Positions 40,481 to 58,627 of a stretch of 64,000 nt of DNA are shown one piece after another. The notes beneath the pieces are model-generated. The model did not search any database and was not told the origin of the DNA. It was given only the letters and a program-made list of their open reading frames with translations. Source of the stretch: Myxococcota bacterium. Its GTDB lineage: Bacteria > Myxococcota_A > UBA9160 > UBA4427. The translations under genes were made by a program, and so were the position numbers. Numbering within the stretch: the first letter of the stretch is position 1; each line of letters starts with the position of its first letter. Location of the stretch: assembly GCA_965250285.1 (NCBI GenBank), contig OZ252299.1:64001-128000 (forward strand), in the 5' to 3' direction.

Positions 40481-40529
40481 AGTGGTGGCCCAGGGCGGAT
40501 TTGAACCGCCGACACCTCGATTTTCAGTC
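40481..40529 (-). repeat. att site: duplicated 3' part of tRNA-Phe
   Basis: AGTGGTGGCCCAGGGCGGATTTGAACCGCCGACACCTCGATTTTCAGTC, identical to 56489-56537. Confidence 0.95.
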
Positions 40530-40712
40530 TCCGGCGCGCCTCTACGATCACCTGCGCAGGACCACTCCCGCGCACCCCAAATGCCTGAAAATGATGAAGA
40601 TTGATGGACTCGTGGCCACCCGCGACTACGCTTTGCTGCGTTGGGCTTTGCTTCCGGATGCTTCCGATTTGCTTCCAGCGTCGGTGAGCGTGGCAAAGCC
40701 GGGAGGCCAGTC

Positions 40713-41936
40713 ATGCCGAAGCTCTCGAAGCGCGAAATCGACTCGATCTCGCCCGACCCCTGTCGCGAAGTCTTTGCCTGGGACGATGACCTGAAGGGCT
40801 TCGGCGTGCGCGTGATGCCCTCGGGACGCAAGTCCTTCGTCATCCAGTACCGCTCCGCCGGACGGACCCGCCGCATGTCGCTCGGTGCCGTAGGTGTTCT
40901 GACCCCCGCCCAAGCTCGCTCGGAAGCCATTCAACGTCTCGCGGAGGTCGCGCAGGGCGGTGACCCCTCGCGCGACCGGCGAGTGGCGCGCCTTGAGCCG
41001 ACGATGAGCGAGCTGGCTGAGCGGTACCTCGAAGAACACGCGAAGCCCCACAAGAAGCCCTCGAGCTACGAGAATGACGTGCGTGGGCTTCGACTTCACG
41101 TTCTACCGGCGCTGGGAAGCGCACGGGTCAAGGACGTGACGCGGCAAGAGGTGGCTGAGCTGCACAGTCGGATGAGAGCCACTCCCATCATTGCGAATCG
41201 CACACTCGCGCTGATCTCGAAGATGTTCAGCTTGGCTCGCCTTTGGGGGATTCGAGACGACAACCCGGTCGTCGGTGTTCCGCGCTTTCGAGAGAACCGC
41301 CGCGAACGCTATCTGTCGGAAGCCGAGATCGCGGACCTCGGTCGAACGCTGCGCGAGGCGGAAGCCCAGAGCGTCGAACCCGCTTCGGCGATCGCAGCGA
41401 TTCGGCTCCTGCTGTTCACCGGCTGTCGCAAAGGCGAGATCCTCTCGTTGCGCTGGCCCGACGTGGACTTCGAGAGAGGCTTGCTCTGGCTCAGGGACAG
41501 CAAGACAGGTGCGCGGACCGTCCCCATTAATGCGCCCGCTCGGGAGATCCTCGTCAACCTGCAACGATCTCGAACCGGCGAGACCTGGGTCATTGAGGGG
41601 CGGCACGCAGGGAAACCCCTCGTCGGGTTGTGGCGGGTTTGGAGCCGCGTGCGGGATCGGGCGGGTCTCGTTGACCTTAGGCTCCATGACCTGCGCCACA
41701 CGCACGCATCAGTCGCAGCTGATGCTGGGCTCTCCCTGCCGGTGATCGGCGCGCTTCTCGGTCACGCGAGCCCCGCTACGACCTCTCGCTATGCCCACCT
41801 TGCAGACGATCCGCGTCGCAGAGGTTCCGACATCGTGGGTGCCAAGGTTGCGGCCGCAATGTTCGACGGTCCCCGCGCCGAATTGCTGGATCTACCTATC
41901 GATCCTCGATCGTTGAAGGGGGCGACCAATGGATGA
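40713..41936 (+). CDS. tyrosine integrase, P4-like with N-terminal arm-binding domain
   Basis: WDDDLKGFGVRVMPSGRKSF arm domain; TGCRKGE, SKTG, HDLRH, LLGH, RYAH. Confidence 0.95.
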   Translation: MPKLSKREIDSISPDPCREVFAWDDDLKGFGVRVMPSGRKSFVIQYRSAGRTRRMSLGAVGVLTPAQARSEAIQRLAEVAQGGDPSRDRRVARLEPTMSELAERYLEEHAKPHKKPSSYENDVRGLRLHVLPALGSARVKDVTRQEVAELHSRMRATPIIANRTLALISKMFSLARLWGIRDDNPVVGVPRFRENRRERYLSEAEIADLGRTLREAEAQSVEPASAIAAIRLLLFTGCRKGEILSLRWPDVDFERGLLWLRDSKTGARTVPINAPAREILVNLQRSRTGETWVIEGRHAGKPLVGLWRVWSRVRDRAGLVDLRLHDLRHTHASVAADAGLSLPVIGALLGHASPATTSRYAHLADDPRRRGSDIVGAKVAAAMFDGPRAELLDLPIDPRSLKGATNG

Positions 41937-42288
41937 CGAAAACGATGGTTCGGGCACCCAGCGCACGAATCTGCTTGGCCTCTCGCGGTCGTTCCGTTTC
42001 GAGTTCGAGTCGGAGGACCCGCTGGAGCGGGCTCGCGAGTTCTACCAGCAACTGCCCCAGCCACTCACGGATCCGTTCATGGAGCTTGTCGGTGACTTGA
42101 TCTGTCACGGAGGGAAATCGAGTGTGGGACTCGCGAACGAAGCGTTCGCGAGGCTGATGCAAGACTCCGGTGTGCGCGCCGGGAACTGCGAGAGGTGCGG
42201 TCGTGCCTTTCTCAAGAAGAGCTCGGACAAGCGCTTCTGCCGGCCGACCTGCCGGGTTCAAGCGAATCGGGATCGGAACTTCTCGTAG
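41929..42288 (+). CDS. hypothetical protein with C-terminal CGNR-like zinc finger
   Basis: CERC...KRFCRPTC; overlaps the integrase stop. Confidence 0.65.
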   Translation: MDDENDGSGTQRTNLLGLSRSFRFEFESEDPLERAREFYQQLPQPLTDPFMELVGDLICHGGKSSVGLANEAFARLMQDSGVRAGNCERCGRAFLKKSSDKRFCRPTCRVQANRDRNFS

Positions 42289-42378
42289 CTCCAATTCAGT
42301 TGCTGTGTGCTGCTACGGATACGCGTAGGCGCGCACACTGCGTCCGTTTGGTTCCTTGCGGTACCGAGGGGGACTGCA

Positions 42379-42645
42379 ATGGAGCTTCTAAGGCCAGACG
42401 AGACGGTCTCGTACCTTGAGAAGGTGACCGGACGGCCCGGAATCGTCACATCTCGCACGCTCAAACGATGGCGGCGAGGTCGGCGAGGTCCGAGGCACGT
42501 CCAGCTCGAGGGGCGCATCTACTACAGGGAAGAAGACCTGAGGGTGTGGCTCTCACGCGCCGGAGTTTGGAACGACGCGCGTGATCCGCGCCCGTGGGTG
42601 AGAGGCTCGGCGGACGAGAGCCCGGTCAGGAGGTCGACATCTTGA
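42379..42645 (+). CDS. AlpA/excisionase-like HTH protein
   Basis: TLKRWRRGRRGP...GRIYYREEDLRVWL. Confidence 0.75.
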   Translation: MELLRPDETVSYLEKVTGRPGIVTSRTLKRWRRGRRGPRHVQLEGRIYYREEDLRVWLSRAGVWNDARDPRPWVRGSADESPVRRSTS

Positions 42646-42875
42646 CCTCGAACTCGGAAGCGTCATCGTCGAACGATCGACAGCGCCTTCTCACCACCGA
42701 GGAAGCAGCGCGGTTTCTCGCTGTTTCGCGCCGGACACTCGAGAAGTGGCGCCTCACGGGACAAGGGCCGGCGTACCTGAAGCTTGGCCGAAGGTCTGTG
42801 CGGTACTCGCCCGGAGAGCTAGATCGGTTCCTTCGGGGGAGCGCTCGGTCTTCGACCTCAGAGGTGCCGGTATGA
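42642..42875 (+). CDS. excisionase-like HTH protein
   Basis: LLTTEEAARFLAVSRRTLEKWR...GPAYLKLGRRSVRY; AGGAGG RBS, TTG start. Confidence 0.85.
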   Translation: MTSNSEASSSNDRQRLLTTEEAARFLAVSRRTLEKWRLTGQGPAYLKLGRRSVRYSPGELDRFLRGSARSSTSEVPV

Positions 42876-43156
42876 GCGCCCCCGAGCCCACCGATTCGGA
42901 GACCGGCCGAGAGTCGGTTCTCGAAGGCCGCGTGCGCGACGTTCTCAGTTCGTGCCCGGAGGCGCAGAAATCGCGGTTCCTGAAGCGAGCGGAGAGAGCG
43001 GTAGCGGGTTCCCGGTCTGCCGCGATTGAACTCAAATGCCTCGAATGCTGCTGCTGGTCGCTCTCAGAGGCGCGTTCCTGCCATATCGAGGAGTGTGCGC
43101 TCTGGTCGTATTCGCCGGCTGCTTCTGCCCGCAAACAGCTAGGGGTTCAGGGATGA
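42872..43156 (+). CDS. phage-type Cys-rich hypothetical protein
   Basis: AIELKCLECCC...CHIEECALWSY; translationally coupled. Confidence 0.65.
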   Translation: MSAPEPTDSETGRESVLEGRVRDVLSSCPEAQKSRFLKRAERAVAGSRSAAIELKCLECCCWSLSEARSCHIEECALWSYSPAASARKQLGVQG

Positions 43157-43638
43157 TCGTCGAAGACGATCGCCACCTTTCCCCGAAGGATGACCCCTAC
43201 TCGACGCTGGTTGAGCCCGGCGACAGCTACGTCGTCATGCCGCTCAGAATCGAGATCGGATCGAACTACCGTCGGCTCATCGCATTCGTTCGGTGCCAGA
43301 TCGTTGAACCTGCTGAGCACTCGGGTCTTCACATCTTTCGCTTCGTGAATCTGCCGGCTTGGTGGAAACCTCGTGCGAGGGGCCGAATCGGCAGGCGAAG
43401 CAATCTCTGGGCCGATTGCGTGTCGCTGTCTGGACGAAGGCCACCCGCAGGGTGGTTCGAACTCGAGCGACTCTACGCGGCCGACTCGATGTATCGCGCC
43501 AAGATCGTCACGGTCAGCGAAACCCAGGGCGAGGGTGGGCGTCGGGAGCCGATGCATGTGTGCGAACACTACTCGCGAATCGACCGATTCTTGGGGCAGG
43601 TAGCTGGATCTACCCCGCTAGGTGGCCGGGCTCTGTAA
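43153..43638 (+). CDS. hypothetical protein
   Basis: ATGA overlap with the upstream gene; 161-aa ORF. Confidence 0.55.
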   Translation: MIVEDDRHLSPKDDPYSTLVEPGDSYVVMPLRIEIGSNYRRLIAFVRCQIVEPAEHSGLHIFRFVNLPAWWKPRARGRIGRRSNLWADCVSLSGRRPPAGWFELERLYAADSMYRAKIVTVSETQGEGGRREPMHVCEHYSRIDRFLGQVAGSTPLGGRAL

Positions 43639-43987
43639 CCCAAACCCTAACCACAACCGCAACACTGACGGGAACCTCAACAGCAACAGGATACGGATAG
43701 AACTGGCCAAGGAATACGGGCACTTAGAATCGGTCCATCCATCTCGACGCCGACCTCCGGAGACGTGTGAGACATGCAATGCGCGCTTCTGTGACTGGGC
43801 GATCTGCTTAGAACGTTTTCCACCGGGTCGCTTGCTCGACCCACTCACTCGGGAATCCAGCCAGGGGGGAGGCGGCCCTTGTTGGGGCCGTCCTCTCCTG
43901 ACTCGGATCTAGCCAGATCCCCGAGCCGCTGTGGGCCATGAAATCCAGGTTGGCCATGTGATTTCGATGAAATGGTGGAGCTGAAGG

Positions 43988-44602
43988 ATGGGAGGCATTG
44001 GGTCCGGGCGCTACGGAACACGGCCACTCGTCGAGAACACGCTCAAGCTCGACGTGCTCTTGCTCACACGCAACGGGATTAGGCTGGGCGATGGCAACGT
44101 GTCGTGGAACAGGGGAGGGGAGCTGCTCTCGTCGATCGCATACAGAGTCGGCCGAGTTGGGTCCGATCCGACTTTGACGCTTCGCTATCTCGCCGGGCCA
44201 GAGAAGCGACCTATGCGGCAGATGATTCACCTTCAGTCGACACGCCCTCATCTGGGCGGCGAAAGATGGTGGTTTACCTGTCCACTGGAGGGCCGTCGAT
44301 GCCGGATGCTCTACTTCGGAGATGTTGTTGGCTTCAGCGGATTCGCTGGCCGAAGAGCACTTGGCCTCGCGTACCGGTCGCAGTGTGAGCACGCGGGAGA
44401 TCGCGCACTTCGACGAGCGCAGAAGCATCTACTTCGCCTAGGCGGCGAGGGCTGTATCGCAGATGAGATCGAGGGTCTACCGAAGCCAAAGTGGATGCGA
44501 TGGAAGACGTTCCATCGGCGGATGCTGGCTGCTCAACTGGCCGACGCGGAGAGCTGGGCATGGGCGTTCGAGCGAGTAGGCTCGACGCCCCACGATCGAT
44601 AG
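43988..44602 (+). CDS. conserved prophage/island hypothetical protein (MGGxGSGR family)
   Basis: MGGIGSGR...GGERWWFTCP...LAYRSQ...KPKWMRWKTF. Confidence 0.75.
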   Translation: MGGIGSGRYGTRPLVENTLKLDVLLLTRNGIRLGDGNVSWNRGGELLSSIAYRVGRVGSDPTLTLRYLAGPEKRPMRQMIHLQSTRPHLGGERWWFTCPLEGRRCRMLYFGDVVGFSGFAGRRALGLAYRSQCEHAGDRALRRAQKHLLRLGGEGCIADEIEGLPKPKWMRWKTFHRRMLAAQLADAESWAWAFERVGSTPHDR

Positions 44603-44813
44603 CGGTCGTCAAGCCTGACTCCGCCCCAGCGACTCGATGCCCCCCCCAATGTGTCTCGGACGTGATATGAAGCATCAGTCTCATTCTCCGCTTCGCGCGA
44701 CCCCTTGCGATCGTCGCAAAGCGTCGAATCTACAGCTAGTTGCGAAGGCCGACGCTGATATCGCTAGGATCTTACTCGGCGAGAGCGGCGATGGGCGTCG
44801 CCGTCGAATACAA

Positions 44814-44820
44814 GTTAGGC
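44814..44820 (+). other. integron recombination core (attI-like) at head of cassette array
   Basis: GTTAGGC followed by GGCGGC is the exact reverse complement of the GCCGCCGCCTAAC start of attC1; no attC body upstream. Confidence 0.7.
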
Positions 44821-44871
44821 GGCGGCTTCAGCCGGGAACGGCCAGGCTTGAGCCCAGCCGTCCCCAGACCT

Positions 44872-45117
44872 TCACTCATCTCTGAAGTAGTAGTTCCGCG
44901 GCTCGCCGTCGTACTGCCCGGTCCTCAGGCAGCACTTCTTGAAAACCGGCGTCCCGAGCCGCACGGACACAAGTCATTCCGCCCGAGCTTCTCCTCGAGC
45001 TCCTTGTTCCCGTGCACGACACGTCGGCCGCGCTTCACATGCGTCTCGCTGGGGTAGCCCTTCCGGCGCTTACTCGTTCTCTCGAAAGCGCGGGAGGTCG
45101 TCGTTCTTGGTTGCCAT
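44872..45117 (-). CDS. SEC-C metal-binding small protein split over reading frames (cassette 1, reverse orientation)
   Basis: GGGAGGT RBS + ATG 45117; [16 protein letters not shown] in one frame and [22 protein letters not shown] in another; may be recoded or a pseudogene. Confidence 0.75.
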
Positions 45118-45170
45118 GGGGCACCTCCCTTCTTGTGCGGGCCGTGGTGGCCCGGGCTTTGGGCGCGCAG

Positions 45171-45199
45171 GTTGTACCTCAGGTTGGGTGTGCAGTCCA
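45171..45199 (-). promoter_or_regulatory. sigma70-like promoter for the SEC-C cassette gene
   Basis: TGGACT-17 nt-TACAAC on the minus strand. Confidence 0.4.
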
Positions 45200-45236
45200 C
45201 GCTGCGCAGGCCACCAGCAATTTCGGGCACGCCGCC

Positions 45237-45367
45237 GCCTAACAAGCCGTTGCAGCGGACTTGCTCCCGCTGAGACGATCTCGGGTCGTGGTAGACTGGC
45301 GAGCGTCCGAGGCGTTCAGCCACTGCGAGCAAGGCCGCCGCAAGCCGCTGAACGCCGACCGTTAGGC
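45237..45367 (+). repeat. integron attC site 1 (131 bp)
   Basis: GCCTAAC...CAGCGGACTTGC...GCAAGCCGCTG...GTTAGGC imperfect palindrome (RYYYAAC...GTTRRRY). Confidence 0.92.
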
Positions 45368-45376
45368 GGCGGGCGC

Positions 45377-45757
45377 GTGCGCACACTCGCGGCATTGCAT
45401 CCGATCCTCCTCGCTGGGTGCCCGGCGACATACTGGGCTCAGATTCAGAACGAGTCCTCAAGCCGTCTCGTAGCCGTTCCGCCGTTCGAGTCCTCGTACG
45501 CGGTTGCGATCTCATCGGGCAGTTCTGCGCGGGTCTCCTGGTATCAGCCATGCCTAGTTCTTGTCGACGTCGACCGAGCCGAAACCAGTTTCTTTCAAAC
45601 GTTCCCGTTCCCCGACAACGTGGCGAGAACTCGCATGTTCTCGGTCAGACTCGAAGCAACGTACTCAGAGGGCCGTCTCTTCCTCGAGGCCGAAGACGGG
45701 TCCCGATTCGAGGTGCCCCGCGTCGCCGAGTGCTCAGCTGCCACTCCCGCCGCCTAA
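45377..45757 (+). CDS. cassette 2 ORF, probable lipoprotein
   Basis: GTG start, LLAGC lipobox; stop TAA lies inside the GCCTAAC of attC2. Confidence 0.65.
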
Positions 45758-45882
45758 CAAGCCGTTGCAGCGGACTTGCTCCCGCTTAGGCGATATCGGG
45801 CCGTGGTAGAATCACGCTCGTCCGAGGCATTCAGCTGCTGCGAGCAAGGCCGCCGCAAGCCGCTGAACGCCGACCGTTAGGC
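45752..45882 (+). repeat. integron attC site 2 (131 bp)
   Basis: Same structure as attC1. Confidence 0.92.
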
Positions 45883-45896
45883 AGCGGGGCCCGGAG

Positions 45897-46139
45897 ATAG
45901 GACGCTACAAGTTCAAACTCGGGAACAAGCCCAGGCGCAAGCGCCGTCTCGATTCCGGACGGTCGCGTCTTCCCGGACCCGAGCGCCCGGCTGAACGCCC
46001 TGAAGTATCCGATAGGCGTCTGCTCTCGTTCTCCGACGCGAAGTGGCGCGTCCCCACATTCTCAGAGCTCCTGGCCTTCGCTGCAATCGCCAGCATTTTC
46101 GCTGTGATCGTCGCGTCGGTCTATTGGCCGGGGCCCTAG
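45897..46139 (+). CDS. cassette 3 ORF (80 aa, C-terminal TM) lacking a canonical start
   Basis: Open frame from ATA at 45897 to TAG 46139: IGRYKFKLGNKPRRKRR...LLAFAAIASIFAVIVASVYWPGP. Confidence 0.35.
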   Translation: MGRYKFKLGNKPRRKRRLDSGRSRLPGPERPAERPEVSDRRLLSFSDAKWRVPTFSELLAFAAIASIFAVIVASVYWPGP

Positions 46140-46225
46140 GTGGGGCTTCCTCTGCTTCGCTTCAGCGTTCATGAGTATCTCTGCCACTTGACTCAGGCTT
46201 GGCACTCGTGTCTGCATCCGCCGCT

Positions 46226-46356
46226 GCCTAACAAGCCGTTGCAGCGGACTTGCTAACGCCGAGGCGATCTCGGGTCGTGGTAGACTGCCGGGTGTCCGAG
46301 GCGTTCAGTCGCTGCGAGCAAGGCCGCCGCAAGCCGCTGAACGCCGACCGTTAGGC
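46226..46356 (+). repeat. integron attC site 3 (131 bp)
   Basis: Same structure as attC1. Confidence 0.92.
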
Positions 46357-46365
46357 AGCGCGACC

Positions 46366-46776
46366 GTGAGCCGGGCCGATGGACTCGTCCTGCATTCTCG
46401 ACAAATGAAGCACTCGCGCTGGCTTGCAAGGGGCTTCGCGACGCTTGCGATTCTCAATTCGATTCAGCGGGCGTGGCCTCAGGCCGCCCTGTTTACTGCG
46501 TGCGCCGTCGTGTTCTTCGCATCCACTCGATCAAACTTGAACTGGCTGCTCCTTTCAGACTCCATCGAGTTGCCGAGAGGTCCTTGGCGTCAACCGCGCT
46601 CGCTTGATCTAACGAAGCTGGCTTCGTGGCAATTCTTCCAGCCGACGAATGAGCTTACGCTGACCTTCCGAGATTCCTCCTCTAAGAAGCTGAGCCTTAG
46701 CATTCTAGAGCCAGACTCCCGCAACGATCTCGTTCGTGAACTCGAATCCCGCGCACCCGGTAGACACGTCACCTAG
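46366..46776 (+). CDS. cassette 4 ORF, membrane hypothetical protein
   Basis: Fills the cassette; two hydrophobic segments followed by a small soluble domain. Confidence 0.6.
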   Translation: MSRADGLVLHSRQMKHSRWLARGFATLAILNSIQRAWPQAALFTACAVVFFASTRSNLNWLLLSDSIELPRGPWRQPRSLDLTKLASWQFFQPTNELTLTFRDSSSKKLSLSILEPDSRNDLVRELESRAPGRHVT

Positions 46777-46787
46777 CGACGCGCGCT

Positions 46788-46918
46788 GCCTAACAAGCCG
46801 TTGCAGCGGACTTGCTAACGCTGAGGCGATATCGGGTCGTGGTAGAATCTCGGACGTCCGAGGCGTTCAGCAGCAGCGAGCAAGGCCGCCGCAAGCCGCT
46901 GAACGCCGACCGTTAGGC
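46788..46918 (+). repeat. integron attC site 4 (131 bp)
   Basis: Same structure as attC1. Confidence 0.92.
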
Positions 46919-46921
46919 GGC

Positions 46922-47389
46922 ATGGCGAATCCCCTGCTAACAACGCTTGCTGCTGTCGCCCTCGTATGCTGCTCGGGTACGGTGTCTCAGTCGAACATCG
47001 ACGGCGAGCCGACATCCCATTGCGAGCCAAAGCCACCGATAGAGTACGCTGCCTATGGCGTCGTCTTGAGCATCTCATCATCGAGTTGCATAGACGCCTC
47101 TGCACCGCTTCGTGATGGTGCCGGGTACGAATGGCTGTACGTCTACGATACGTATACCTTCCGGAATTCAGAGCTAGAGCTAGCGGCGCGCAGCTATGGC
47201 GAATCGTCCGAAGCTCACTTTCTCCGCCTTTCTGAGTCGGGCGAATCTCGATTCCTCACACACTCCGACTTCGACACTCCCATCGTTCTCGCGGCGGTCC
47301 AGTATCTATCCGAAGCGGGCAAATCCGAGCTCACGTGGCTCGACCCTCAGAATGACCTCAACGGCTATTCGCCAGTACCCTCTCGGTAG
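46922..47389 (+). CDS. cassette 5 ORF, exported/lipoprotein hypothetical
   Basis: ATG 3 nt after attC4; MANPLLTTLAAVALVCC signal. Confidence 0.65.
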   Translation: MANPLLTTLAAVALVCCSGTVSQSNIDGEPTSHCEPKPPIEYAAYGVVLSISSSSCIDASAPLRDGAGYEWLYVYDTYTFRNSELELAARSYGESSEAHFLRLSESGESRFLTHSDFDTPIVLAAVQYLSEAGKSELTWLDPQNDLNGYSPVPSR

Positions 47390-47402
47390 GCTGAGGCATT
47401 CC

Positions 47403-47533
47403 GCCTAACAAGCCGTTGCAGCGGACTTGCTAACGCTTGAGCCGATTTGGGTCGTGGTACCATGCCGGCTATCGATGGCGTCTCGGCGCGCTGTGCCAAA
47501 TCGGCGCAAGCCGCTGAACGCCGACCGTTAGGC
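47403..47533 (+). repeat. integron attC site 5 (131 bp)
   Basis: Same ends, more diverged centre. Confidence 0.9.
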
Positions 47534-47573
47534 AGCGGAGGTTCTGGCACCGTGACCATGGGAAGCATCGTCG

Positions 47574-48806
47574 GTGTATAGCTTGATCGTTTCTCACCAG
47601 TTCAGTGACTGGGAGGGCAGAGCCTTCCAGTTCAACAAGGGACGCTTCCTTGAGTACACGAGCGACGCGATAGCAGAGCAGTTGTGGCCCCTGTCGACCG
47701 AGGCCATCGAGTGCCTCAAGTCGTGGCCGTGCATTCTGATGGACGAGGGGCGAGCGGAGGAGCTCGTTCGCATCGCCCGCATATCGGAGCTTCAGGATCT
47801 TGGCGACGAGATTTGGCTAGCCGTCGATCTCGTTCCGACCAAAGTGCCCATACTCAACGACCACCTTTGGCGAGTCCGGGATGAGCTGGACGTACGGCAG
47901 TTCGAGTTCAGCCGGAACCACTGGGCAGTGAAGGAGCGGGACCTCTTCAGAGTCCTTCGGGCAGCCGGGCTCGATTGCGAGAGCTCCGCGAGCGGCGCCG
48001 TGGAGGAGAGGCCGCTTCCCGCACCTACCCGGGCCTCCTTGATCGCGGCACGAAACTCGATCTCCAACTGGACTCATACTGAAATCGACGATCTGCTGCT
48101 GGAAGCGGGCGTGGCGGGTCTATCTGCGGGGCGAGGGTTGGGCAGCCGCCGTGACCGCGCCAACGCGATCGTTCAGTTCGCGATCGCGAACCCGTCGGAA
48201 GTAACCGCAGAGAACTCTCTGTTCTCCGCCTACCTCGTGAGGCGATCTGTCGGAGCTGGCGATGGAGACGCGGAGGATGCCTCTTCGCCTCTGATTCACG
48301 AGGGCGCTTCCGTGCCTCAACCACAAACCGGCGACGGCTCCACCCCCCGATCCTCCAATCGGGTCTTCGTGGTACACGGGCAAGACGAGACTGCTCGCAC
48401 TGCGGTCGTCGCTTTCCTTGAAAGCCTAGGATTGGTTGGAGTCGTCCTCCATGAACAACCGAACATGGGTCGTCATCTTCTCACGAAGTTCATCGACGAA
48501 GCGGACCTAGCAACTTTCGCCGTAGTCCTTATGACAGACGACGACGTAGGAGGTCTCAAGGGTCAGGAGCTCGCGCCCCGGGCTCGCCAAAACGTGATCC
48601 TAGAGTTGGGCTACTTCCTTGCACACCTCGGTCAGGCAAGCGTATGCGCTCTTGTCGCGCCCGGCCTGGAAACGCCCTCGGATTTCGACGGCATCGTCTA
48701 CATCACCATGGACGATGATCAACGATGGCAAGAAGAGCTGAAGCGCGAACTCTTGGCTGCGAAGATGCCTGTTGTCGAAGCCCCGAATAGCGCATCCGCT
48801 GGCTAG
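47574..48806 (+). CDS. multi-domain protein with C-terminal CAP12/Pycsar-type TIR-like domain
   Basis: RVFVVHG, LHEQPNMG, FAVVLMTDDD, RARQNVILELGYF, PSDFDGIVY. Confidence 0.88.
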   Translation: MYSLIVSHQFSDWEGRAFQFNKGRFLEYTSDAIAEQLWPLSTEAIECLKSWPCILMDEGRAEELVRIARISELQDLGDEIWLAVDLVPTKVPILNDHLWRVRDELDVRQFEFSRNHWAVKERDLFRVLRAAGLDCESSASGAVEERPLPAPTRASLIAARNSISNWTHTEIDDLLLEAGVAGLSAGRGLGSRRDRANAIVQFAIANPSEVTAENSLFSAYLVRRSVGAGDGDAEDASSPLIHEGASVPQPQTGDGSTPRSSNRVFVVHGQDETARTAVVAFLESLGLVGVVLHEQPNMGRHLLTKFIDEADLATFAVVLMTDDDVGGLKGQELAPRARQNVILELGYFLAHLGQASVCALVAPGLETPSDFDGIVYITMDDDQRWQEELKRELLAAKMPVVEAPNSASAG

Positions 48807-48974
48807 TAGGGGCTTGCACTTGACAACGGACAGCTGGGCGTTCCTAGGTTCGGTAGCGTTCTGGCGACGGGACTTCTGTAGTTTGGTGCTGACGGTCAGC
48901 GCTGTATGTCGCAGCTGAAACCCGATCTTTTGGGCAGCACGCTGCCTGGTTGCCCTGCGCGTTCCAGTTGATCA

Positions 48975-49952
48975 ATGGCGCTTGACCACTACGTTTCTCA
49001 GGTTCATCTCCGCGGGTTTGTCGCATCGGACCTCGGCAATCGAATGTTTGCGACTAGCAAGAGCACGCTCAAGAGGTTCACGCCAACGCCCAAAGCCGTC
49101 TGCAGAATCGAAGAGGGAAGCACCAACGACTACTTGAGCGATCCGCGTGCTGTCGAGGACTTTCTGAAGCTCATCGAGCCGAAATACAACTCCGCGGTCG
49201 ACTCTCTCCTGGCCTCTGACATTCACGATGACGTGATCATGACGCTGGCCGGCTTCGCCGCGTACGTCTACGTATGCTCTCCCGCAGGTATGCGACTTGC
49301 CATGGGTCCGCTTCGCGCATCTGTGGAGGCGACCGCCGAGATTCTAGACCGGCAAGGCGAACTCCCGCCGATACCACAAGGGCTCGGTGCATCCTCGATC
49401 AGGGAGCTCTTTGAGATGCAGGCGCTCAAAGTTGACGTAGATCCGAAGTTTCCACAGGCAATGGGAATCTCGCAGATCGTTCAGCTGGCGGCTCAGCTCG
49501 GCAACTTCCCTTGGGAGATTCTTCGAAATGAAGAGCGAGGCAGCCCGTTCTTCACATCAGACTTTCCAGTCGCGCTACAGCAGAGTTCCGATCCTCGTAT
49601 CATGAACAGGATTGTTCCGCTCACGCCTAAGCTAGCGATTCGAATCCTCCCGAACTTTGAGTCCAGGACGGATGAGCCAGACCTCTCGTTCTCCGGCTTC
49701 AGGTACCGAGTCCGTACCCTGCGCCGCAGCGAAGTTCGAGTAGTCAACGAGCTGCTCGTTCGTGCTGCGGAAGACTTCGTGTTCTACTGCGAAGATCACG
49801 CCTGGACGCCGAGGTTCATCGAACGAAACCGACACTACCGAACTGAATCCGTGACCGAGAGGATCCCGACGCCCACGGGCGGCGAGCTTCAAGTCAGTGG
49901 CCAGCGAATCGCGCCGTTTCGGCGACCGCCCGCGGCTGTAGGATCAGCCTGA
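48975..49952 (+). CDS. DUF4238 domain protein
   Basis: N-terminal HYVSQVHLRGF and FFTSDFPV...PLTPKLAI motifs. Confidence 0.8.
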   Translation: MALDHYVSQVHLRGFVASDLGNRMFATSKSTLKRFTPTPKAVCRIEEGSTNDYLSDPRAVEDFLKLIEPKYNSAVDSLLASDIHDDVIMTLAGFAAYVYVCSPAGMRLAMGPLRASVEATAEILDRQGELPPIPQGLGASSIRELFEMQALKVDVDPKFPQAMGISQIVQLAAQLGNFPWEILRNEERGSPFFTSDFPVALQQSSDPRIMNRIVPLTPKLAIRILPNFESRTDEPDLSFSGFRYRVRTLRRSEVRVVNELLVRAAEDFVFYCEDHAWTPRFIERNRHYRTESVTERIPTPTGGELQVSGQRIAPFRRPPAAVGSA

Positions 49953-50130
49953 GTGGTTGCCCGCGGTCTGGCAAGCCGTTGGATCGGGCCGCCCCCAGCT
50001 GCGGCGGTATCGGCGTTGGTACTTTTTTTGGCAACTAGCCGGGTGCATTCTGCGAAGCCGGTCAGCAGCTGGCCGATGTCGCTAGACGTCGACCGTTTGG
50101 CAGTTTGAAGCACGAGGAAACCAGTAGAGC

Positions 50131-51333
50131 ATGACTGCTCCTTCGAACAAGAAGTATCGGGCCGCACTTGTTGCAATATTTATCAGCGGCGGTGTGCTGG
50201 CAGCTCTGGTCGGGCTAGTTCCCTTCATACTTGGTAACGCACCGCCGGTTCCCGTACTTGAACTGACTCCTGCTGAGAAGTACGGCTATGCACCGATGAC
50301 TCTTGTAGCCAACGGCAGCCGATCCTCAGACCCCGACGGCGATTCGCTAACTTACGCTTGGCGCTTCAACGGCCAGGGCGAAGCTGAAGTGTCATCGCTC
50401 TTGGAGAAGCGAATTGCTAGGGGAGGGAAGTACCGGCTTGAGTTCCAGGTCTCGGATGGAAGCCACAGTCTCCCACCCCTCATCGAGTTGATCACCGTTC
50501 TCCCGCCGCTGAAGGATCTCGAAATCCCACCGCTGGCCCAGGACACCGTCCTGACTCATCCCGACGTGACACTCGTTCTGCCTCCAGAAATCGTAACGAA
50601 CGGATTCGGCCTTACGATCGAAGCTGGCGGCATCAAGGCAGGCGACACGAAGATCGTCTCTTTCATCAAGCCTAAAGCCGATCCCGTCTCGCCAGGGTCG
50701 AACGGTTCACGAGGAGGGCGGACAGGGATTCACGGCGACCCGGGTGAGAATGGAGCTGATGGATCAGATGGCAACGATGGCAAGTCACCTGGGCCTATCG
50801 TGCTGAAGGCCCCCTTCCTGTCAGGGAACCTTGCGATATCGAACCGTGGACAGAGTGGCGGAGACGGCGCGCCAGGGGGATCTGGGGGAAGTGGCGGGAG
50901 CGGTGCGAACGGACGCAACCGCGGCGGAGACGCAATCTGTTCAAACGATGTGCGACCCGGCAATGGCGGTAACGCTGGGAGGGGCGGCGATGCGGGTCGG
51001 GGCGGCGATGCGGGTGATGGAGGCAGCGGCGGCGATGTCACCGTCATCGTGGAAGATATTGATGCCCAGATCACGGTCGATGTTTCGCCGGGCTCACCAG
51101 GTATGCCGGGAGAACCTGGAACGCCCGGGCAACCTGGCTCTCGAGGAACTGGTGGTAGGCGGAGCCACTGCGGGGGCGGGGGGAGTGACGGAGGTGCGAA
51201 CACCGCCGGATCCGAACGGCCCGAGGGAGCGCCCGGCTCGACTGGCCACCGCGGCAACATTAAGTTCGTGATCGGTGGTCTTGAGCAGAATTATGCCACT
51301 AGCTCGGCCACACTTCGGAGATTGAGGAAGTAG
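50131..51333 (+). CDS. membrane-anchored PKD-domain protein with collagen-like Gly-rich repeats
   Basis: N-terminal TM; GSRSSDPDGDSLTYAWRF; long GxxGxx runs. Confidence 0.75.
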   Translation: MTAPSNKKYRAALVAIFISGGVLAALVGLVPFILGNAPPVPVLELTPAEKYGYAPMTLVANGSRSSDPDGDSLTYAWRFNGQGEAEVSSLLEKRIARGGKYRLEFQVSDGSHSLPPLIELITVLPPLKDLEIPPLAQDTVLTHPDVTLVLPPEIVTNGFGLTIEAGGIKAGDTKIVSFIKPKADPVSPGSNGSRGGRTGIHGDPGENGADGSDGNDGKSPGPIVLKAPFLSGNLAISNRGQSGGDGAPGGSGGSGGSGANGRNRGGDAICSNDVRPGNGGNAGRGGDAGRGGDAGDGGSGGDVTVIVEDIDAQITVDVSPGSPGMPGEPGTPGQPGSRGTGGRRSHCGGGGSDGGANTAGSERPEGAPGSTGHRGNIKFVIGGLEQNYATSSATLRRLRK

Positions 51334-51797
51334 CGGCGGCTCAGGAATGTTCCGGACGTGGCCGCCACATGGCACCGCGTTTCAGCGGATCGGCAGAACC
51401 TCGGTCCAATCGAACTCGGCTGCCAACTCGCACAATGCTCTGGGCGCAGGCTCGACCATGGCAAACGCTGTATTTGGCCGCGGTACCCCGACGTACGATC
51501 CCCGCGACCTCCTGAGGCCACTTCGCATCAAGCCGGTTGCGAAACCGACACAGGCATAGGGATTCTAAACACTCGGTCAGGCATCCGCGGAGCTGTAATC
51601 ACGCGCGGTGTTGGGCCCGGACGACGCGGCTCACCGATGTGGCGATCAGCTGGAATGCTCCTCATCGATCCGAAATGCCGCATCAAACAACGAGAAGGCA
51701 CGGCCATGCCTTGACAACAGAAGTGTTGTTGGCCGCAGGCGCGTCTGCCGGACCCAGTCGTGGTGAGCTGAACACAGAACATGCCACTCCGGTCCGG

Positions 51798-52292
51798 CTA
51801 AATCGGCGCAATTGTGAGCGTGATCCCGGGCAGATCGTTCACATCGTCGTCAAGGCACTCGTCATCACTCGCATGCAACGTGACCACGATCTTTCGGTTC
51901 TCGATGAGCCACCCATCACTCAGGTTGGTGCTTGAGCGCTCGCTCCACCCCGCCTTGCCCAGGACCTCTGCAATCGCAGAAGACAGACCCTTGGCTTCGC
52001 TGACCGCTTTGGACGCCGACTGGCGGCACCACTTCACAGCGAGCTCAGGGGAGCTCCCTGGTGACCCTGTTACTTCACAAGCCGAGCTGTTCGGCGGTAA
52101 CTTCTTACACTTCCACCAATGATGAGTGTCGTCCCACATCTCCAAGTCCTTCGCCCCTCTCATCGAGGAGAAGTCTGACTCCGACGCTTTGATCGCTGCG
52201 CGTAGAAACTCTTCAACGCTCTCAGCACCTGCGGCTCCCGGGATGGCAATTGAAGCCAATATGACTGCAATAGTCATCACAGCTGATCTCAT
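51798..52292 (-). CDS. exported hypothetical protein
   Basis: GAGGA RBS; signal peptide MRSAVMTIAVILASIAIPGAAGA; 4 Cys. Confidence 0.6.
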   Translation of the reverse strand: MRSAVMTIAVILASIAIPGAAGAESVEEFLRAAIKASESDFSSMRGAKDLEMWDDTHHWWKCKKLPPNSSACEVTGSPGSSPELAVKWCRQSASKAVSEAKGLSSAIAEVLGKAGWSERSSTNLSDGWLIENRKIVVTLHASDDECLDDDVNDLPGITLTIAPI

Positions 52293-52309
52293 ATCCTCTA
52301 CCCCTCGTT

Positions 52310-53137
52310 CTAGAGACCGAAGTTCCGCCTGCCGTAGCTGAATGCTTGCGAGAATCGAGTTGCACCGCGGAGCGCGAGTTCCCAACCAGCGGTCGCAGCT
52401 TGGAGACGCTGTGCCGGTGTGCCGTGGTGACCACGTGAGTTGAACGCGTAGTCACCCTTGTCGAAAACTGAACGCGCGGCACCTCGCGCATCGAAACGTG
52501 AGCCATGAGCAGTCTTGAATCCGAGATACCAGCCAGCCACGAAATCGGCCAGGAGTTCCATCTTCACGGTTGTTCCTACGGCATTCGCATTGAACTCAGC
52601 GATGTGAGCCCACTCATGAGCCATAATGAAGACGGCCGCACCCTCCCAAGCCAATGACTGCTCTTCTTGCTCCTGCTTGAGGAGATTGACACCGAAGCAA
52701 ACGGACCCGTGAGAACTCCCGAGGAAGGGGTCACTCGTGGCGAAGGCATTAGGACCGTCGGAGTCGTCGAAGAACGCAAACCCTGGTCGGTAGCCCATTA
52801 CGTCACCCAGCACCCGCGTTTCGAGCGAGAACGCCTGATCGATGTAGGGCCAGCCGGTGCGCTCAAGTAGCTCGAAGTTGGATTGGAGGGCTCTCGAGTC
52901 AGCCCGGTTGAGTGTGCAGCCTTGGTCAAGCGAAAAGGTCGCTCGGTCGCCACGCGTCTGCCTGCTCTGGCTACCATCGCCCGCTGATGGCCAACCGGCG
53001 CCACTCGATCCGCTGCTGCCCCCTCCCTCTTGATTCGAGCTTTCGCCTGGCCAGCCGCTCGCCAGCCCGAGCCTGGAGTAGGAACACGAACCCGCCGCAA
53101 CCCAGGCGGCGATAGACAGGAATGTCCTTCGGTCCAT
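52310..53137 (-). CDS. Tat-exported neutral zinc metallopeptidase
   Basis: MDRRTFL Tat motif; AHEWAH, ELLAD..AG, HGTPAQR. Confidence 0.8.
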   Translation of the reverse strand: MDRRTFLSIAAWVAAGSCSYSRLGLASGWPGESSNQEGGGSSGSSGAGWPSAGDGSQSRQTRGDRATFSLDQGCTLNRADSRALQSNFELLERTGWPYIDQAFSLETRVLGDVMGYRPGFAFFDDSDGPNAFATSDPFLGSSHGSVCFGVNLLKQEQEEQSLAWEGAAVFIMAHEWAHIAEFNANAVGTTVKMELLADFVAGWYLGFKTAHGSRFDARGAARSVFDKGDYAFNSRGHHGTPAQRLQAATAGWELALRGATRFSQAFSYGRRNFGL

Positions 53138-53163
53138 CCGACAGCCCTCCTCGGGCCAGATGT

Positions 53164-53655
53164 TCAGGAGTATTTCTTGATGCGAATAAAGACGTAAGGC
53201 TTGGACCCTGTAGAGGCGGTAAGGGTGATGCTCATCTTGTCTAGGGTGACGAGGCCAGAGCTCTGCCTTGTGTTGGTCAGTACCCAAAACGACTCGCTCT
53301 TGTAGTACTTGCCTGACTTCGAGTCAGACTCCTTGTGCTCGACCTTGACGCGTCCTATTCCCTCCACAACCTCCCATTCGCCAGTGAAGCAATCCGAAAC
53401 ATCCGAGAACATCGACGAGAAGAACGCGGAACTAGCGCTACGCGACATCCCTCGCCACTCGCACTCCACATGATCGCGAGAGGAGTCACAAGCCGAGTCA
53501 TCGGGAACAGAGGTAGGAGCGGACCCCTTCCCAAGTGCCCCGATCATCGCCCTCAAGTCTCGACAGACCTCACCAGCATCGGCGGGGCTCGGCGATGCGA
53601 TACCCAATGCTACGATCGTCGCAGCAACGCGCGAAAGAGTTCGACCGTCAGCCAT
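53164..53655 (-). CDS. exported hypothetical protein
   Basis: GAGGAG RBS; signal peptide ending ADA; 4 Cys. Confidence 0.6.
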   Translation of the reverse strand: MADGRTLSRVAATIVALGIASPSPADAGEVCRDLRAMIGALGKGSAPTSVPDDSACDSSRDHVECEWRGMSRSASSAFFSSMFSDVSDCFTGEWEVVEGIGRVKVEHKESDSKSGKYYKSESFWVLTNTRQSSGLVTLDKMSITLTASTGSKPYVFIRIKKYS

Positions 53656-53817
53656 CAACGTCTCCTCGGCGCATCGGTCGTCAACCGCCGACGCCGTTGT
53701 GAAGAAAGCTCTCAGCCCGAGCGCGACATGCCCCCGTGCGGTGAACTTTTGAGTTCCCAATAGCGCTGCGCGAGGCGAGTACAGTTGGAGCCCGTCCACC
53801 GCTAAAGGTCTGGCTGG

Positions 53818-54108
53818 TCAGCGTCCTAGGTCCGTCACAGCCCACCGAACCATGCACTTCCACCGTTTCCAGGTGGCTGCGTCCGAGTCCTCCTCGCAGT
53901 CGCAGCTCTGGATGTTCACGTGCTTCTTCCCATAGGTGGCGATACTGCTCGTCTTAAGTTCCGCCATCTCCAACGCGCTTGAGCAGGCGTCGATCTTTGA
54001 TCCTCCGACTCCAATCTCGTGCCCGGTGGCATCACCAAGCGCAAGTGAGGCGCTGGAGATGGATATGACACCAATGGCCCCGGCCAGGTACGTCCAAGTG
54101 CTATTCAC
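53818..54108 (-). CDS. small exported Cys-containing protein
   Basis: GAGGT RBS; signal peptide; C...CDC...C. Confidence 0.6.
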   Translation of the reverse strand: MNSTWTYLAGAIGVISISSASLALGDATGHEIGVGGSKIDACSSALEMAELKTSSIATYGKKHVNIQSCDCEEDSDAATWKRWKCMVRWAVTDLGR

Positions 54109-54159
54109 CCGTACACCTCTCTACCAACGCCGACCTCAGAATTGCTGCGTCCAAACAGA

Positions 54160-54450
54160 TCATGGGTCTGGCAGGCATTCGACGAGCTGGCAGAGCTTCT
54201 CGCAGGCAGGTGGCTTAAGGCCGCACTGGTGTCGACCTGGCTTCGGTACACCTGCATCGTTGAAGCCGCAGCCCGGAGAAGGCCTGATCTCTTCCCGCAG
54301 CTCTCCACCGGGACAAAAGTCGCCAGGATCAGCCGGCTCGAACCTGGGCCCGGCTCCCTCTCTGCCGGGTGCGGTCGACGTATCGTCGTCAGCGACTAGA
54401 GGTCCGACGCATAGGAGTGTCGTAGCCGCGATTGCAAGAAGACACCGCAT
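54160..54450 (-). CDS. small exported Cys-rich hypothetical protein
   Basis: MRCLLAIAATTLLCVGPLVA signal; 6 Cys in the mature part. Confidence 0.4.
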   Translation of the reverse strand: MRCLLAIAATTLLCVGPLVADDDTSTAPGREGAGPRFEPADPGDFCPGGELREEIRPSPGCGFNDAGVPKPGRHQCGLKPPACEKLCQLVECLPDP

Positions 54451-56490
54451 TACGACCACGAGCGTTGTCTCCGCTTTGGGTCGCCGACTGCGGCACCGAC
54501 GAGTGAACCTCAGTTTGGAATCTCTTGCAGACTCAGGAGGTATCATCGATCGTATTGTACCCAACTCTGGCAATCCCTAAACGCTCTGCCCTCACCCACC
54601 TCGCGATGCACGCAGCAGCGGCTCAGTCGTAGGCGTTTCTACGCGTGGCCACTCTTCACCTCGACTCCTTCAGACTGCCCCGCTGGGGATTGACGATGCG
54701 GTTGCCGAGGGAGGAGACCTTTGCCGTCATCTCGAGTCGGTAATTCGAGGAATCAACATGGGCTGCGTTTAAAGACTCATGAGCGACCTCTGGGGTAGTG
54801 AAGCTCAACTCGTTTGCGCAACACATCTACGCGTACCGCATCTCGATTGGGTTCGATAGATATGCGATTGCTCACATTCGCCCGGCCTCATTCAACTGTT
54901 CCGAGAAGATTCGAGCCGCGCACTCATGAAGGCCATCCACTCTCAGTGCTCTCGCGAAGCGGGATCGAGCTGCGTGGCCCGACGCCATCTCCAGCTCGTG
55001 CTCCTCGTGATCTGCTACCGAAGCGATCTCGAGCGCCATCGCGTCCGAAGCGTGTTGAGTAGGCGCCATCACCAACGGGACGCAGTACCTAACCGCGACT
55101 TCTCGTGACACCCCAACTCCGTCCACGATCTGGCGATTGAACCTTGGAATCCATCCAGCGTGCACGACCTTGCTTGGCCCGCAACACCGAAGTGTGCCTG
55201 AAACCCGCCGGACGTGCCGCAGCCTCGATCCCCTCAGAAACCAAAGCATCTGCCAGATACGGAATGACCTAGGGTGCGGCATTGAACGCATGGCGGCTGA
55301 CATGTCACCGGTCGGGCGGGGATCGGTAGGCTGCAGATAGGATCGGTCCCCATACATGCAGTTGGCAGACACCATGTCGAAAAGGCACAGCGCTGGCGTT
55401 CGCTGAGTCTACCCAGCGATGCGAATAGACAAGGTCGCGAGCCGCCGGCTAACGACGTTCACCGGCGTGCGGACAAGTCCTGTGCCCCAGACCCTTGATA
55501 CTCGGATGCCATCTACCCACCCCAAGTGAAACGCGTGCCGGCGGGTGCACAGTGGGCTGTCGATGGCTGCTCGCGTCCGGAGAACTCACTTCGCCACCGC
55601 CGTCGATTCCGTTTTCGTGGTTGCCTCACTTTCGGTTGGCTGAACCGTATTGGGCAGTCTCACCGGCGCGTCTCTCTCGTAGCCGGCGCGGATCGCACCC
55701 GCGATCGGAGATTCGCAGTGCGTTCGGAACGGATCGGTACCGACAACCAGCCCACAGTGCCCGCGCTGAGAGCTCGTTCGTTCTGAGTTTCGGGTCTATT
55801 CGCGCTGCAACGCCACACGTCCGCGCCGGAATCAGAGACTTCGGCCTAGAGCGCGATCACTAATCTTCCATCGTCGAGATGGTCATTCATGTGCACGCGA
55901 AGCACGTCTCGGGGGACCACTCGTACTTCAGATACTCAGGTACGGGGTAGGTGTCAGGAACGACTTCTCGCTCGAGTTCCTTGGACCACGTTGCGATCCA
56001 GGAGGCCTGCGTGCCTCAGCAATGAACTCCTGAGTCACTGGATCGATCGTCGACGGCTTGTCACGTGAACACGGGCGCCGTTTTCATGCTCAAACAGGAA
56101 CAAGGGTGGTTGGTTTGTGCCCGAGGTCAGCCCCTAAATCAGAAGGCGGTTGGACCCTCCCATGCTGCAGGGTCTTCTTTGACTGTGCCAACACAGAACC
56201 CGATTAGAGGCTCTTGGTCTTCCGCAACTATCCCGGCCACCTCGACGACTTGCAGAGCTCGACGCACAGACACGATCTCAAGCTTCGTGGCCAGACTGGC
56301 TACTTGTCTGGCAAGTCGTGAGATTTGCTGAGGAGTTGTTGCGTCATCCGCAGCCCACTCGGCCATGTAACGGATGGCCGAGCGCCGGGTGTGACGGAGT
56401 GCCCCGTGCTTCCGCTGGGCTTCCGGCAACTCGACCCAGCGAGCGATTGCCGAGGGCGAATCCCTAAGTGATTGTTTTGTAGGGGAAAAG

Positions 56491-56566
56491 TGGTGGCCCA
56501 GGGCGGATTTGAACCGCCGACACCTCGATTTTCAGTCGAGTGCTCTACCAACTGAGCTACCGGGCC
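56491..56566 (-). tRNA. tRNA-Phe (GAA), CCA encoded
   Basis: GGCCCGGTAGCTCAGTTGGTAGAGCACTCGACTGAAAATCGAGGTGTCGGCGGTTCAAATCCGCCCTGGGCCACCA, 76 nt cloverleaf. Confidence 0.97.
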
Positions 56567-57799: not shown

Positions 57800-58438
57800 T
57801 CAGCCGGCCGCCGGCTCGACGGCGATCCGCTCGACCACGACTGGCTCGAGCGGACGATCCGGTCTGCCGAAGCGGCCGTGCTTGTCGATCTCGACCTCGG
57901 CGATCGCATCGACCACGGCCTGTCCCGCAATCACGCGTCCGAACACGGTGTGGTGGCCGTCGAGCTGGGGCTGCGTGTCGAGCGTGATGAAGAACTGGCT
58001 CCCGCCCGTGTTCGGCTTTCCCGAGTTCGCCATCGAGAGCACGCCACGGGTATGGGGCGCGGCGTTGAACTCGTCGTCGATGAGGTAGCCCGGGCCGCCG
58101 TAGCCGTCGTTGCGCGGGTCGGCATCTTTCGACGCTGGGTCGCCGCCCTGGATCATGAAGCCGGGGATCACACGATGGAACAGCGTGCCGTCGTAGAAGC
58201 CCTCGGCGGCCAGCTTCTCGAAGTTCGCGACCGTCTTCGGCGCGAGCTCGGGGTAGAGCTCGAGCTCGATCTGTCCGCGGCCCGCGATGCTGATCGTCGC
58301 CCGCGGATTCGGCCCCTCCGGCCAGGTGAAAGGCGCTGCTGCGGCCGGGGCGGCTTCGGGCTCCGACGAGCATCCGCCCCCGACGCAGAGCACCCAGACG
58401 GCCGCGAGAGCGGCGCCGACACCGACGGGGCCGCGCAT
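57800..58438 (-). CDS. cyclophilin-type peptidyl-prolyl isomerase, probable lipoprotein
   Basis: [38 protein letters not shown]. Confidence 0.93.
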
Positions 58439-58627
58439 GCGTCGTCGCGACCCCTCGATGACACCAACGGGGCCGCGCATGCGTCGTCGCAACCCCTCGA
58501 TGACACCGACGGGGCCGCGCACGCGTCGTCGCAACCCCTCGATGACACCGACGGGGCCGCGCATGCGTCGTCGCGACCCCTCGATGACACCGACGGGGCC
58601 GCGCACGCGTCGTCGCAACCCCTCGAT
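58418..58627. repeat. 42-bp tandem repeat x5
   Basis: Units at 58418, 58460, 58502, 58544 and 58586 (GACACCGACGGGGCCGCGCAYGCGTCGTCGCRACCCCTCGAT). Confidence 0.95.

Follow-up and report, generated by a model that had tools for sequence, protein, structure and literature searches.

A cassette array without IntI behind an attI-like site on a tRNA-Phe island of a Myxococcota bacterium, probably loaded in trans by the chromosomal integron

Introduction

How do integron cassettes come to form an ordered array at a place that has no integron integrase (IntI) of its own? The question is raised by a stretch of 64,000 nucleotides of a Myxococcota bacterium (assembly GCA_965250285.1, contig OZ252299.1, positions 64,001 to 128,000), hereafter the window, in which an earlier reading of the letters without database searches (the sequence-only reading) pointed out a cassette array inside an island integrated at a tRNA gene. 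By sequence and layout, the structure is classed here as a CALIN, an attC cluster without an integron integrase, that is headed by an attI-like site and carried on an integrative island. The explanation given a slight preference is that the IntI of the host chromosome loaded cassettes into the island array in trans, in at least two rounds; loading in trans as such, which an actively shuttling island would also entail, is probable.

The cassette array and its attC sites

The five 131-bp imperfect palindromes GCCTAAC...GTTAGGC that had been reported are all present, intact, with starts at 45237, 45752, 46226, 46788 and 47403, and their identification as attC sites holds: they have R''/R' boxes of the form RYYYAAC...GTTRRRY, L boxes with an extrahelical base, and a bottom-strand hairpin. 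Folding of the bottom strand gave z values of -2.0 to -3.5 for the five sites, and the minimum-energy fold is one long hairpin in four of them, the fourth site (attC4) failing. When 25 attC of the present genome and its relatives were aligned, compensatory changes occurred in 10 of 12 stem pairs (96.5% paired) and the AAC/GTT pairs of the R boxes are kept in 25 of 25. A heuristic fold scan, tried first, was too noisy; a custom structural scanner found 54 sites with a score of at least 18 in the 6.25-Mb genome, five on the island and 49 in one chromosomal array, with none elsewhere. An Rfam scan recognised tRNA only and gave no family for the 131-bp repeats.

The first bases of each cassette are the reverse complement of the start of its own attC over 13, 13, 12, 13 and 9 nt, as the sequence-only reading had noticed. 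In the chromosomal array, taken as a control, such matches reach at least 12 nt in 33 of 49 own pairs and in 69 of 2352 non-own pairs. This complementarity is the trace that excision as a circle and re-insertion leave in the established integron mechanism (PMC4889954).

The array does not end at 47533, as had been supposed; two further cassettes with decayed attC follow, giving an order of five pristine attC adjoining the attI-like site and then two decayed ones further out. The description of the intervening segments as carrying single open reading frames (ORFs) is right for cassettes 2, 4 and 5, but not for cassette 1, which has an inverted SEC-C gene that seems to be broken, or for cassette 3, which has no clear ORF. 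The absence of IntI was correctly seen: no intI gene or remnant was found in the island. With at least two attC and no intI or intI pseudogene nearby, the array is a CALIN; it lacks the adjoining intI of a complete integron. Its features in the window are as follows (the array corresponds to C1:108814-114104 of the genome).

44765..44770, plus strand: TAGGAT, a -10-like box at -49 from the crossover, candidate cassette promoter (Pc)
44785..44801, plus strand: stem of 6 bp with a loop of 5 nt, directly before the attI core
44800..44820, plus strand: attI-like site, crossover G at 44814
44821..45236, minus strand: cargo of cassette 1, an inverted and apparently broken SEC-C motif gene without an in-frame start
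45237..45367, plus strand: attC1, intact; extended -10 motif at 45289
45377..45757, plus strand: cassette 2 ORF, 126 aa, no Pfam family
45752..45882, plus strand: attC2, intact; extended -10 motif at 45804
45883..46225, plus strand: cassette 3, no clear ORF
46226..46356, plus strand: attC3, intact; extended -10 motif at 46278
46366..46776, plus strand: cassette 4 ORF, 136 aa, no Pfam family
46788..46918, plus strand: attC4, intact; extended -10 motif at 46840
46922..47389, plus strand: cassette 5 ORF, 155 aa, no Pfam family
47403..47533, plus strand: attC5, intact; extended -10 motif at 47455
47574..48806, plus strand: cassette 6 ORF, TIR-domain protein (PF10137)
48792..48945, plus strand: attC6, decayed; alignment score 95, the highest among 3000 random background stretches being 80.5
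48975..49952, plus strand: cassette 7 ORF, DUF4238
49963..50104, plus strand: attC7, decayed; nhmmer E 3e-8, retains a -10-like motif at 50017

The letters of cassette 1 are identical in short-read contigs. The TIR protein of cassette 6, the oldest well-defined cassette, matches the PADLOC candidate defence model PDC-S35 (E 2e-54).

A likely docking site ahead of the cassettes

The head of the array, a feature that the sequence-only reading had left unnamed, is likely to be an attI docking site, judged by its letters. In the integrons of 13 relatives a clear motif precedes the first GTT downstream of intI. These 13 attI, without the present genome, served to train a profile covering the 14 bases that lead up to the crossover. 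Among 12,978 GTTRR sites it placed the chromosomal attI first (15.3 bits) and the island site at 44814 second (7.3 bits). The two sites share a -10-like TAGnnT box (TAGGAT at -49 on the island, TAGATT at -48 in the chromosomal platform) and, with its end at -11/-12, a stem that encloses a loop of 5 nt. Stems of this kind are found before 12 of 39 attI-like sites, the chromosomal attI included, as against 248 of 6522 background sites. When the profile was combined with stem and -10 filters, whose thresholds were post hoc, only these two sites were left genome-wide. The candidate Pc has no full sigma-70 consensus match, and homology of the island platform's spacer to that of any other platform is weak.

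If 44814 were instead a chance GWT site (attG), a first cassette could have been inserted there and later ones added by attC x attC recombination. IntI does insert cassettes at many genomic GWT sites (10.1101/2022.09.11.507474), but the attG consensus is GWT and nothing more, and 44814 also fits the attI profile, the stem-loop and the -10 spacing, again with thresholds set post hoc. The island site carries much more information than the bare GWT of an attG, and an attG origin is very improbable.

The chromosomal integron as the source of the cassettes

The genome has one IntI, which is intact and scores 439 bits on the IntI model TIGR02249 (C1:5462777-5463781). It heads an array with 65 related attC profile hits, 49 of them intact, that decay with distance. 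The gene has the same orientation as its array and the attI lies about 210 bp past its stop codon (G000:C1:5462777-5463996, G000 being the present genome), and most relatives in which an attI could be detected have this layout too.

The identity between an island attC and its nearest chromosomal attC is 92.8-96.8%, higher than that to any other attC of the island, and the median nearest-neighbour identity among the chromosomal attC themselves is 94.8%. The five island sites are unclustered on a tree (5 changes against a shuffled mean of 4.9, with bootstrap not settled), attC5 belongs to a minority subtype that is also present in the chromosomal array, and the fetched attC of relatives are at most 83% identical to those of the island. 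No foreign-type attC was found in the island, all being of host type; the decayed attC6 and attC7 also resemble host subtypes, and the decay gradient of the island matches that of the chromosomal array. The start of cassette 3 has 78% identity over 74 nt to a three-copy cassette of the chromosomal array. By their attC, the island cassettes derive from the pool of this host or of one very near to it, and the single sedentary chromosomal integron that had been postulated as their source is present in the same genome, with an intact IntI and the same attC family.

The chromosomal array has repeats of its own: a 267-269-bp cassette without a consistent ORF accounts for 9 of its 49 cassettes (G000:C1:5467039-5486500), and three other cassettes are present two to three times each.

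A promoter-like motif inside attC

The pattern T-G-n-T-A-n-n-n-T is invariant in the loop of all 53 intact attC that were aligned (five island, 48 chromosomal, the latter within G000:C1:5464421-5509733), with its n positions varying. In 17 decayed distal attC the five positions of the motif are kept better than the R boxes, in 79 of 84 cases as against 36 of 64 for GTTA and 23 of 33 for TAAC, counts in which detection may favour sites that retain their centre. Of 19 attC from relatives, 8 have the motif on the top strand and none has it on the bottom strand, with 0.34 expected. The pattern fits the extended -10 promoter consensus and suggests a candidate promoter built into these attC. Promoters have been described within cassettes, not within attC, in the accessible text of PMC8876359 and 10.1101/2023.11.21.568050, and no description of a promoter inside attC sites was found in the literature searched, which takes in only a minority of the subscription journals.

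The island that carries the array

The island extends over 40481-56537, about 16 kb, between exact 49-bp copies of the 3' end of tRNA-Phe, with a GC content of about 60% as against about 69% outside. In G001, a genome of the same genus, tRNA-Phe is present once, next to an ordinary gene; the site in G001 is not the exact pre-integration site, as that neighbour gene differs from the left flank in the present genome. Its integrase, the direct repeats of a tRNA 3' end, the lower GC and the empty site in a relative together mark the stretch as a tRNA-integrated genomic island. Its features outside the array are listed below.

40481..40529, plus strand: integrase-side att repeat, exact 49-bp copy of the tRNA-Phe 3' end
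40713..41936, plus strand: tyrosine integrase with Arm-DNA-bind_3, SAM_3, Phage_int_M and Phage_integrase domains (phrog_1)
41929..42288, plus strand: 119-aa ORF with a Cys cluster at the C-terminus, no Pfam family
42379..42875, plus strand: two HTH_17 genes, excisionase-like, the first below the Pfam cut-off
42872..43912, plus strand: three small backbone ORFs
43988..44602, plus strand: MGGxGSGR gene of 204 aa, assigned to neither a Pfam nor a PHROG family
50131..56488: remaining cargo, a PKD-domain gene and several ORFs without a family; no attC detected there
56489..56566, minus strand: intact tRNA-Phe(GAA), which includes the second att repeat (56489-56537)

The Arm-type tyrosine integrase is the sole recombinase of the island and is not an IntI, scoring 29 bits on TIGR02249, for which the cut-off is 265. 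Among the backbone ORFs, that at 43153-43638 resembles phage DUF669 clusters, a candidate lead. Among the island genes, several backbone ORFs of which are without a family, none was recognised as coding for a primase, helicase, relaxase or packaging function; a Pfam scan of the 21 island ORFs gave no match to a relaxase family. No resistance gene was recognised in the island either. Outside the island, the window has about six tandem copies of a 42-bp unit at 58376-58627.

Relatives of the island

Relatives were sought in 225 genomes of the same class and in scans of GTDB, viral and metagenome sequences. The MGGxGSGR gene was found in 17 of the 225 class genomes, and 9 of 17 fetched stretches have at least 3 kb downstream. 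Its relatives are often near Arm-type integrase, AlpA, Toprim or Prim-Pol genes, and among the best 80 of 516 GTDB loci an Arm-type integrase cluster is present inside the examined stretch in 22 and a Toprim primase cluster in 21. The island looks like a reduced member of this satellite-like family, with no primase recognised in it; the label satellite-like, used in the sequence-only reading, thus suits the relatives, which carry primase genes, and not this island copy. The MGGxGSGR family is widespread, with at least 516 GTDB stretches, and is frequently located downstream of genes for an integrase and a primase.

The island family does not as a rule carry arrays. They were detected at 0 of 60 GTDB loci of the MGGxGSGR gene with at least 3 kb downstream (from the best 80 of 516; a single weak attC-like match on the opposite strand at L064 was dropped from this count), at 0 of 15 metagenome loci of the same gene, in none of 20 stretches, from 12 genomes, that surround duplicated tRNA-Phe ends, and at 1 of 25 integrase loci with at least 3 kb downstream (from 38 fetched). 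These negatives are soft in that, with a lineage-specific profile, the attC known to be present escaped the scanner at about half of the control loci. Variable cassette content in related islands, for which the sequence-only reading proposed a comparison, is not shown by these counts.

The one positive locus is in a class genome (G046) with the best integrase match among the 225, 57% identical, located behind a tRNA-Phe remnant and followed by intI, attI and cassettes (L151:4308-9142 on contig C47; L190:1-1349 on contig C45; IS-like sequence at both contig ends). The sole intact tRNA-Phe of G046, with the same core of about 46 bp, is on the other contig directly after an attC and a cassette-like ORF. 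The simplest reading is one tRNA-Phe island holding a complete integron, the join across the two contigs being inferred. The genome also carries a second IntI, 60% identical.

IntI is present in 121 of the 225 class genomes. Away from islands, attI-headed arrays without IntI are common: among 31 candidates fetched they were found in 10 stretches of 9 genomes, counting those that have an attC downstream and, on the upstream side, 8.8 kb or more without IntI; these 10 stretches showed no match to the island integrase and no tRNA. G001 has such an array at a spot where the present genome has none, which brings the related genomes to at least 10. The attI dock is therefore dispersed in the lineage off islands as well, and the copy at 44814 may simply have landed in this island.

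The loci with attI-headed arrays and no IntI, at chromosomal spots across the class, are L192, L195, L197, L202, L203, L204, L214, L215, L216, L217 and L232. In another genome (G031) an orphan platform is a near copy of the platform behind its intI, and several intI genes of the class have no attI downstream. Two loci were not counted. One (L147:7465-11848, contig C167 of G100) is a CALIN about 130 bp past a tRNA-Ser that begins with a partial attC and has only a gene fragment, with no attI and no integrase match found; at the other (L144) the attC is 4 kb upstream, beyond host genes.

Loading, capture or shuttle

Fresh cassettes near the attI-like site with decayed ones farther out suggest repeated loading in trans. 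In the sequence of events proposed, the host IntI would excise a cassette as a circle and insert it at 44814, pushing older cassettes outward; an older and a recent round of loading would leave two decayed attC behind five fresh ones. The extended -10 motif of each attC would transcribe the next cassette, or the cassette's own gene in the circle, and the island integrase could excise the whole unit at the 49-bp repeats.

Several observations weigh against this account. When all GTT sites are counted, the island site is only 15th of 90,224; its 7.3 bits stand against 15.3 for the chromosomal attI, with a leave-one-out range of -1.5 to 16.2; and it departs from the profile at position -2. The attI training sites were picked by eye, and the later attI pattern and the stem and spacing thresholds were set after the island site had been seen. 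Similarity of the upstream spacer is weak: in its last 100 nt, 477 of 3000 random segments do as well. None of the island cassettes closely copies a cassette now in the chromosomal array, and of the five fresh ones two appear to be broken or empty. No alternative first cassette was seen in four sequencing runs, as contigs, which drop rare variants.

The same structure could stem from a single event, in which attI and cassettes entered the island once, or an island integron like that of G046 lost its intI, the array having been static since. CALINs typically arise when intI is lost or by rearrangement (PMC4889954), and the island family is normally free of arrays (0/60, 0/15, 1/25 and 0/20 above), though in counts as soft as stated. 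Against such a capture, there is no intI remnant in the island, and five pristine with two decayed attC would be hard to obtain unless the captured piece already had the gradient. The capture is considered unlikely, and loading in trans by the host IntI is the account retained.

The sequence-only reading went further and made the island a cassette shuttle that borrows a host IntI. The borrowing finds an intact host IntI and an attI-like head; the shuttling finds no circle or junction, primase or relaxase. If the island were to excise and be moved by a helper phage or conjugative element, taking cassettes of the host integron to new hosts, it would have the equipment for excision in its perfect 49-bp repeats, full-length integrase and two excisionase-like genes; the single tRNA-Phe copy with an ordinary gene alongside in G001 and the related integrase followed by intI, attI and cassettes at the tRNA-Phe remnant of G046 are also in keeping with movement. 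But none of the primase, helicase, relaxase and packaging genes was recognised, as against the frequent Toprim and Prim-Pol genes of its relatives, and the attC of the island are all of host type, none being foreign. No near-identical island was found in the 225 class genomes, GTDB (best 80 of 516 loci), viral contigs or metagenomes, the last giving 15 distant loci at 32-41%. Contigs from four sequencing runs of one study, which may include the source of this genome, showed no excision joint or circle; the depth of the island relative to its flanks varied from run to run and was left out of account. No RNA run containing the sequence was listed. A loose end near the attI-like site in these data maps to a GATC at another place in the genome and was taken to be a library chimera. 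An active shuttle is improbable, and transfer of the island between cells at the present day is doubtful. With no replication or transfer gene found, the island is probably a passenger whose movement is rare or depends on a helper.

A wider idea, put forward tentatively and on balance doubted, is that small tRNA-Phe islands of this lineage are transposon-free mobile integrons, some with their own IntI, as in G046, and others offering a portable attI dock for the host to fill. If so, cassettes of a sedentary array would be sampled and carried between genomes, with the attC promoters expressing them wherever the dock lands. The spread of cassettes from sedentary integrons has so far mostly been explained by transposon-borne integrons of classes 1-5; an island attI dock filled by the host IntI would be a route with neither a transposon nor an IntI of its own. 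The attI profile, the host IntI and the attC sequences make docking directly testable by a recombination assay.

Comparison with known systems

In the literature searched, with the scope given above, no description was found of an attI-headed array without IntI on a tRNA island; its parts can be set beside several known systems. P4-like satellites and phage-inducible chromosomal islands are defined by primase or replicase genes and by capsid or packaging-diversion genes. The present island resembles them in its tRNA-targeting Arm-type integrase, its excisionase-like helix-turn-helix genes and its MGGxGSGR gene, relatives of which are near AlpA and primase genes, but no primase or replicase, capsid or packaging-diversion gene was found in it.

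The insertions at attG and single attC sites without an integrase (SALINs) described in 10.1101/2022.09.11.507474 are alike in that IntI acts far from its gene; the entry site here differs in carrying attI-level information and not just GWT. The CALINs of Xanthomonas that lie away from the ilvD integron, one of them on a conjugative plasmid, are likewise arrays distant from a single host intI, but the available part of that report (10.1101/2025.06.18.660453) describes no attI at their heads and no tRNA island. In archaea, attI sites downstream of intI have been reported (10.1101/2022.02.06.479319), and an engineered platform of class 1 takes up cassettes from the genomes of Vibrio (10.64898/2026.03.17.712381).

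SGI1 and MGIVchHai6, with In104, are integrative mobilizable elements and also tyrosine-integrase islands with a cassette array as cargo; they hold class 1 resistance integrons, are located at trmE and are mobilised by IncA/C plasmids (PMC5704250). In contrast, the present island has no intI, no recognised resistance gene, homogeneous attC of host type and no known helper, and the G046 island is a closer analogue than either.

The array agrees with other CALINs in having at least two attC, no intI nearby and a usual size, with an IntI at another place on the same replicon. Mobilisation in trans is already ascribed to CALINs as a possibility (PMC11389934). The CALIN survey searched only for attI sequences of classes 1-3. 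If the reading of 44814 is correct, some CALINs would be live acceptor sites and not relics, sites that current tools miss because the attI sequences of this lineage are not in them: the array described here, inside a tRNA-integrated element, has kept an attI-like head and could gain as well as give cassettes.

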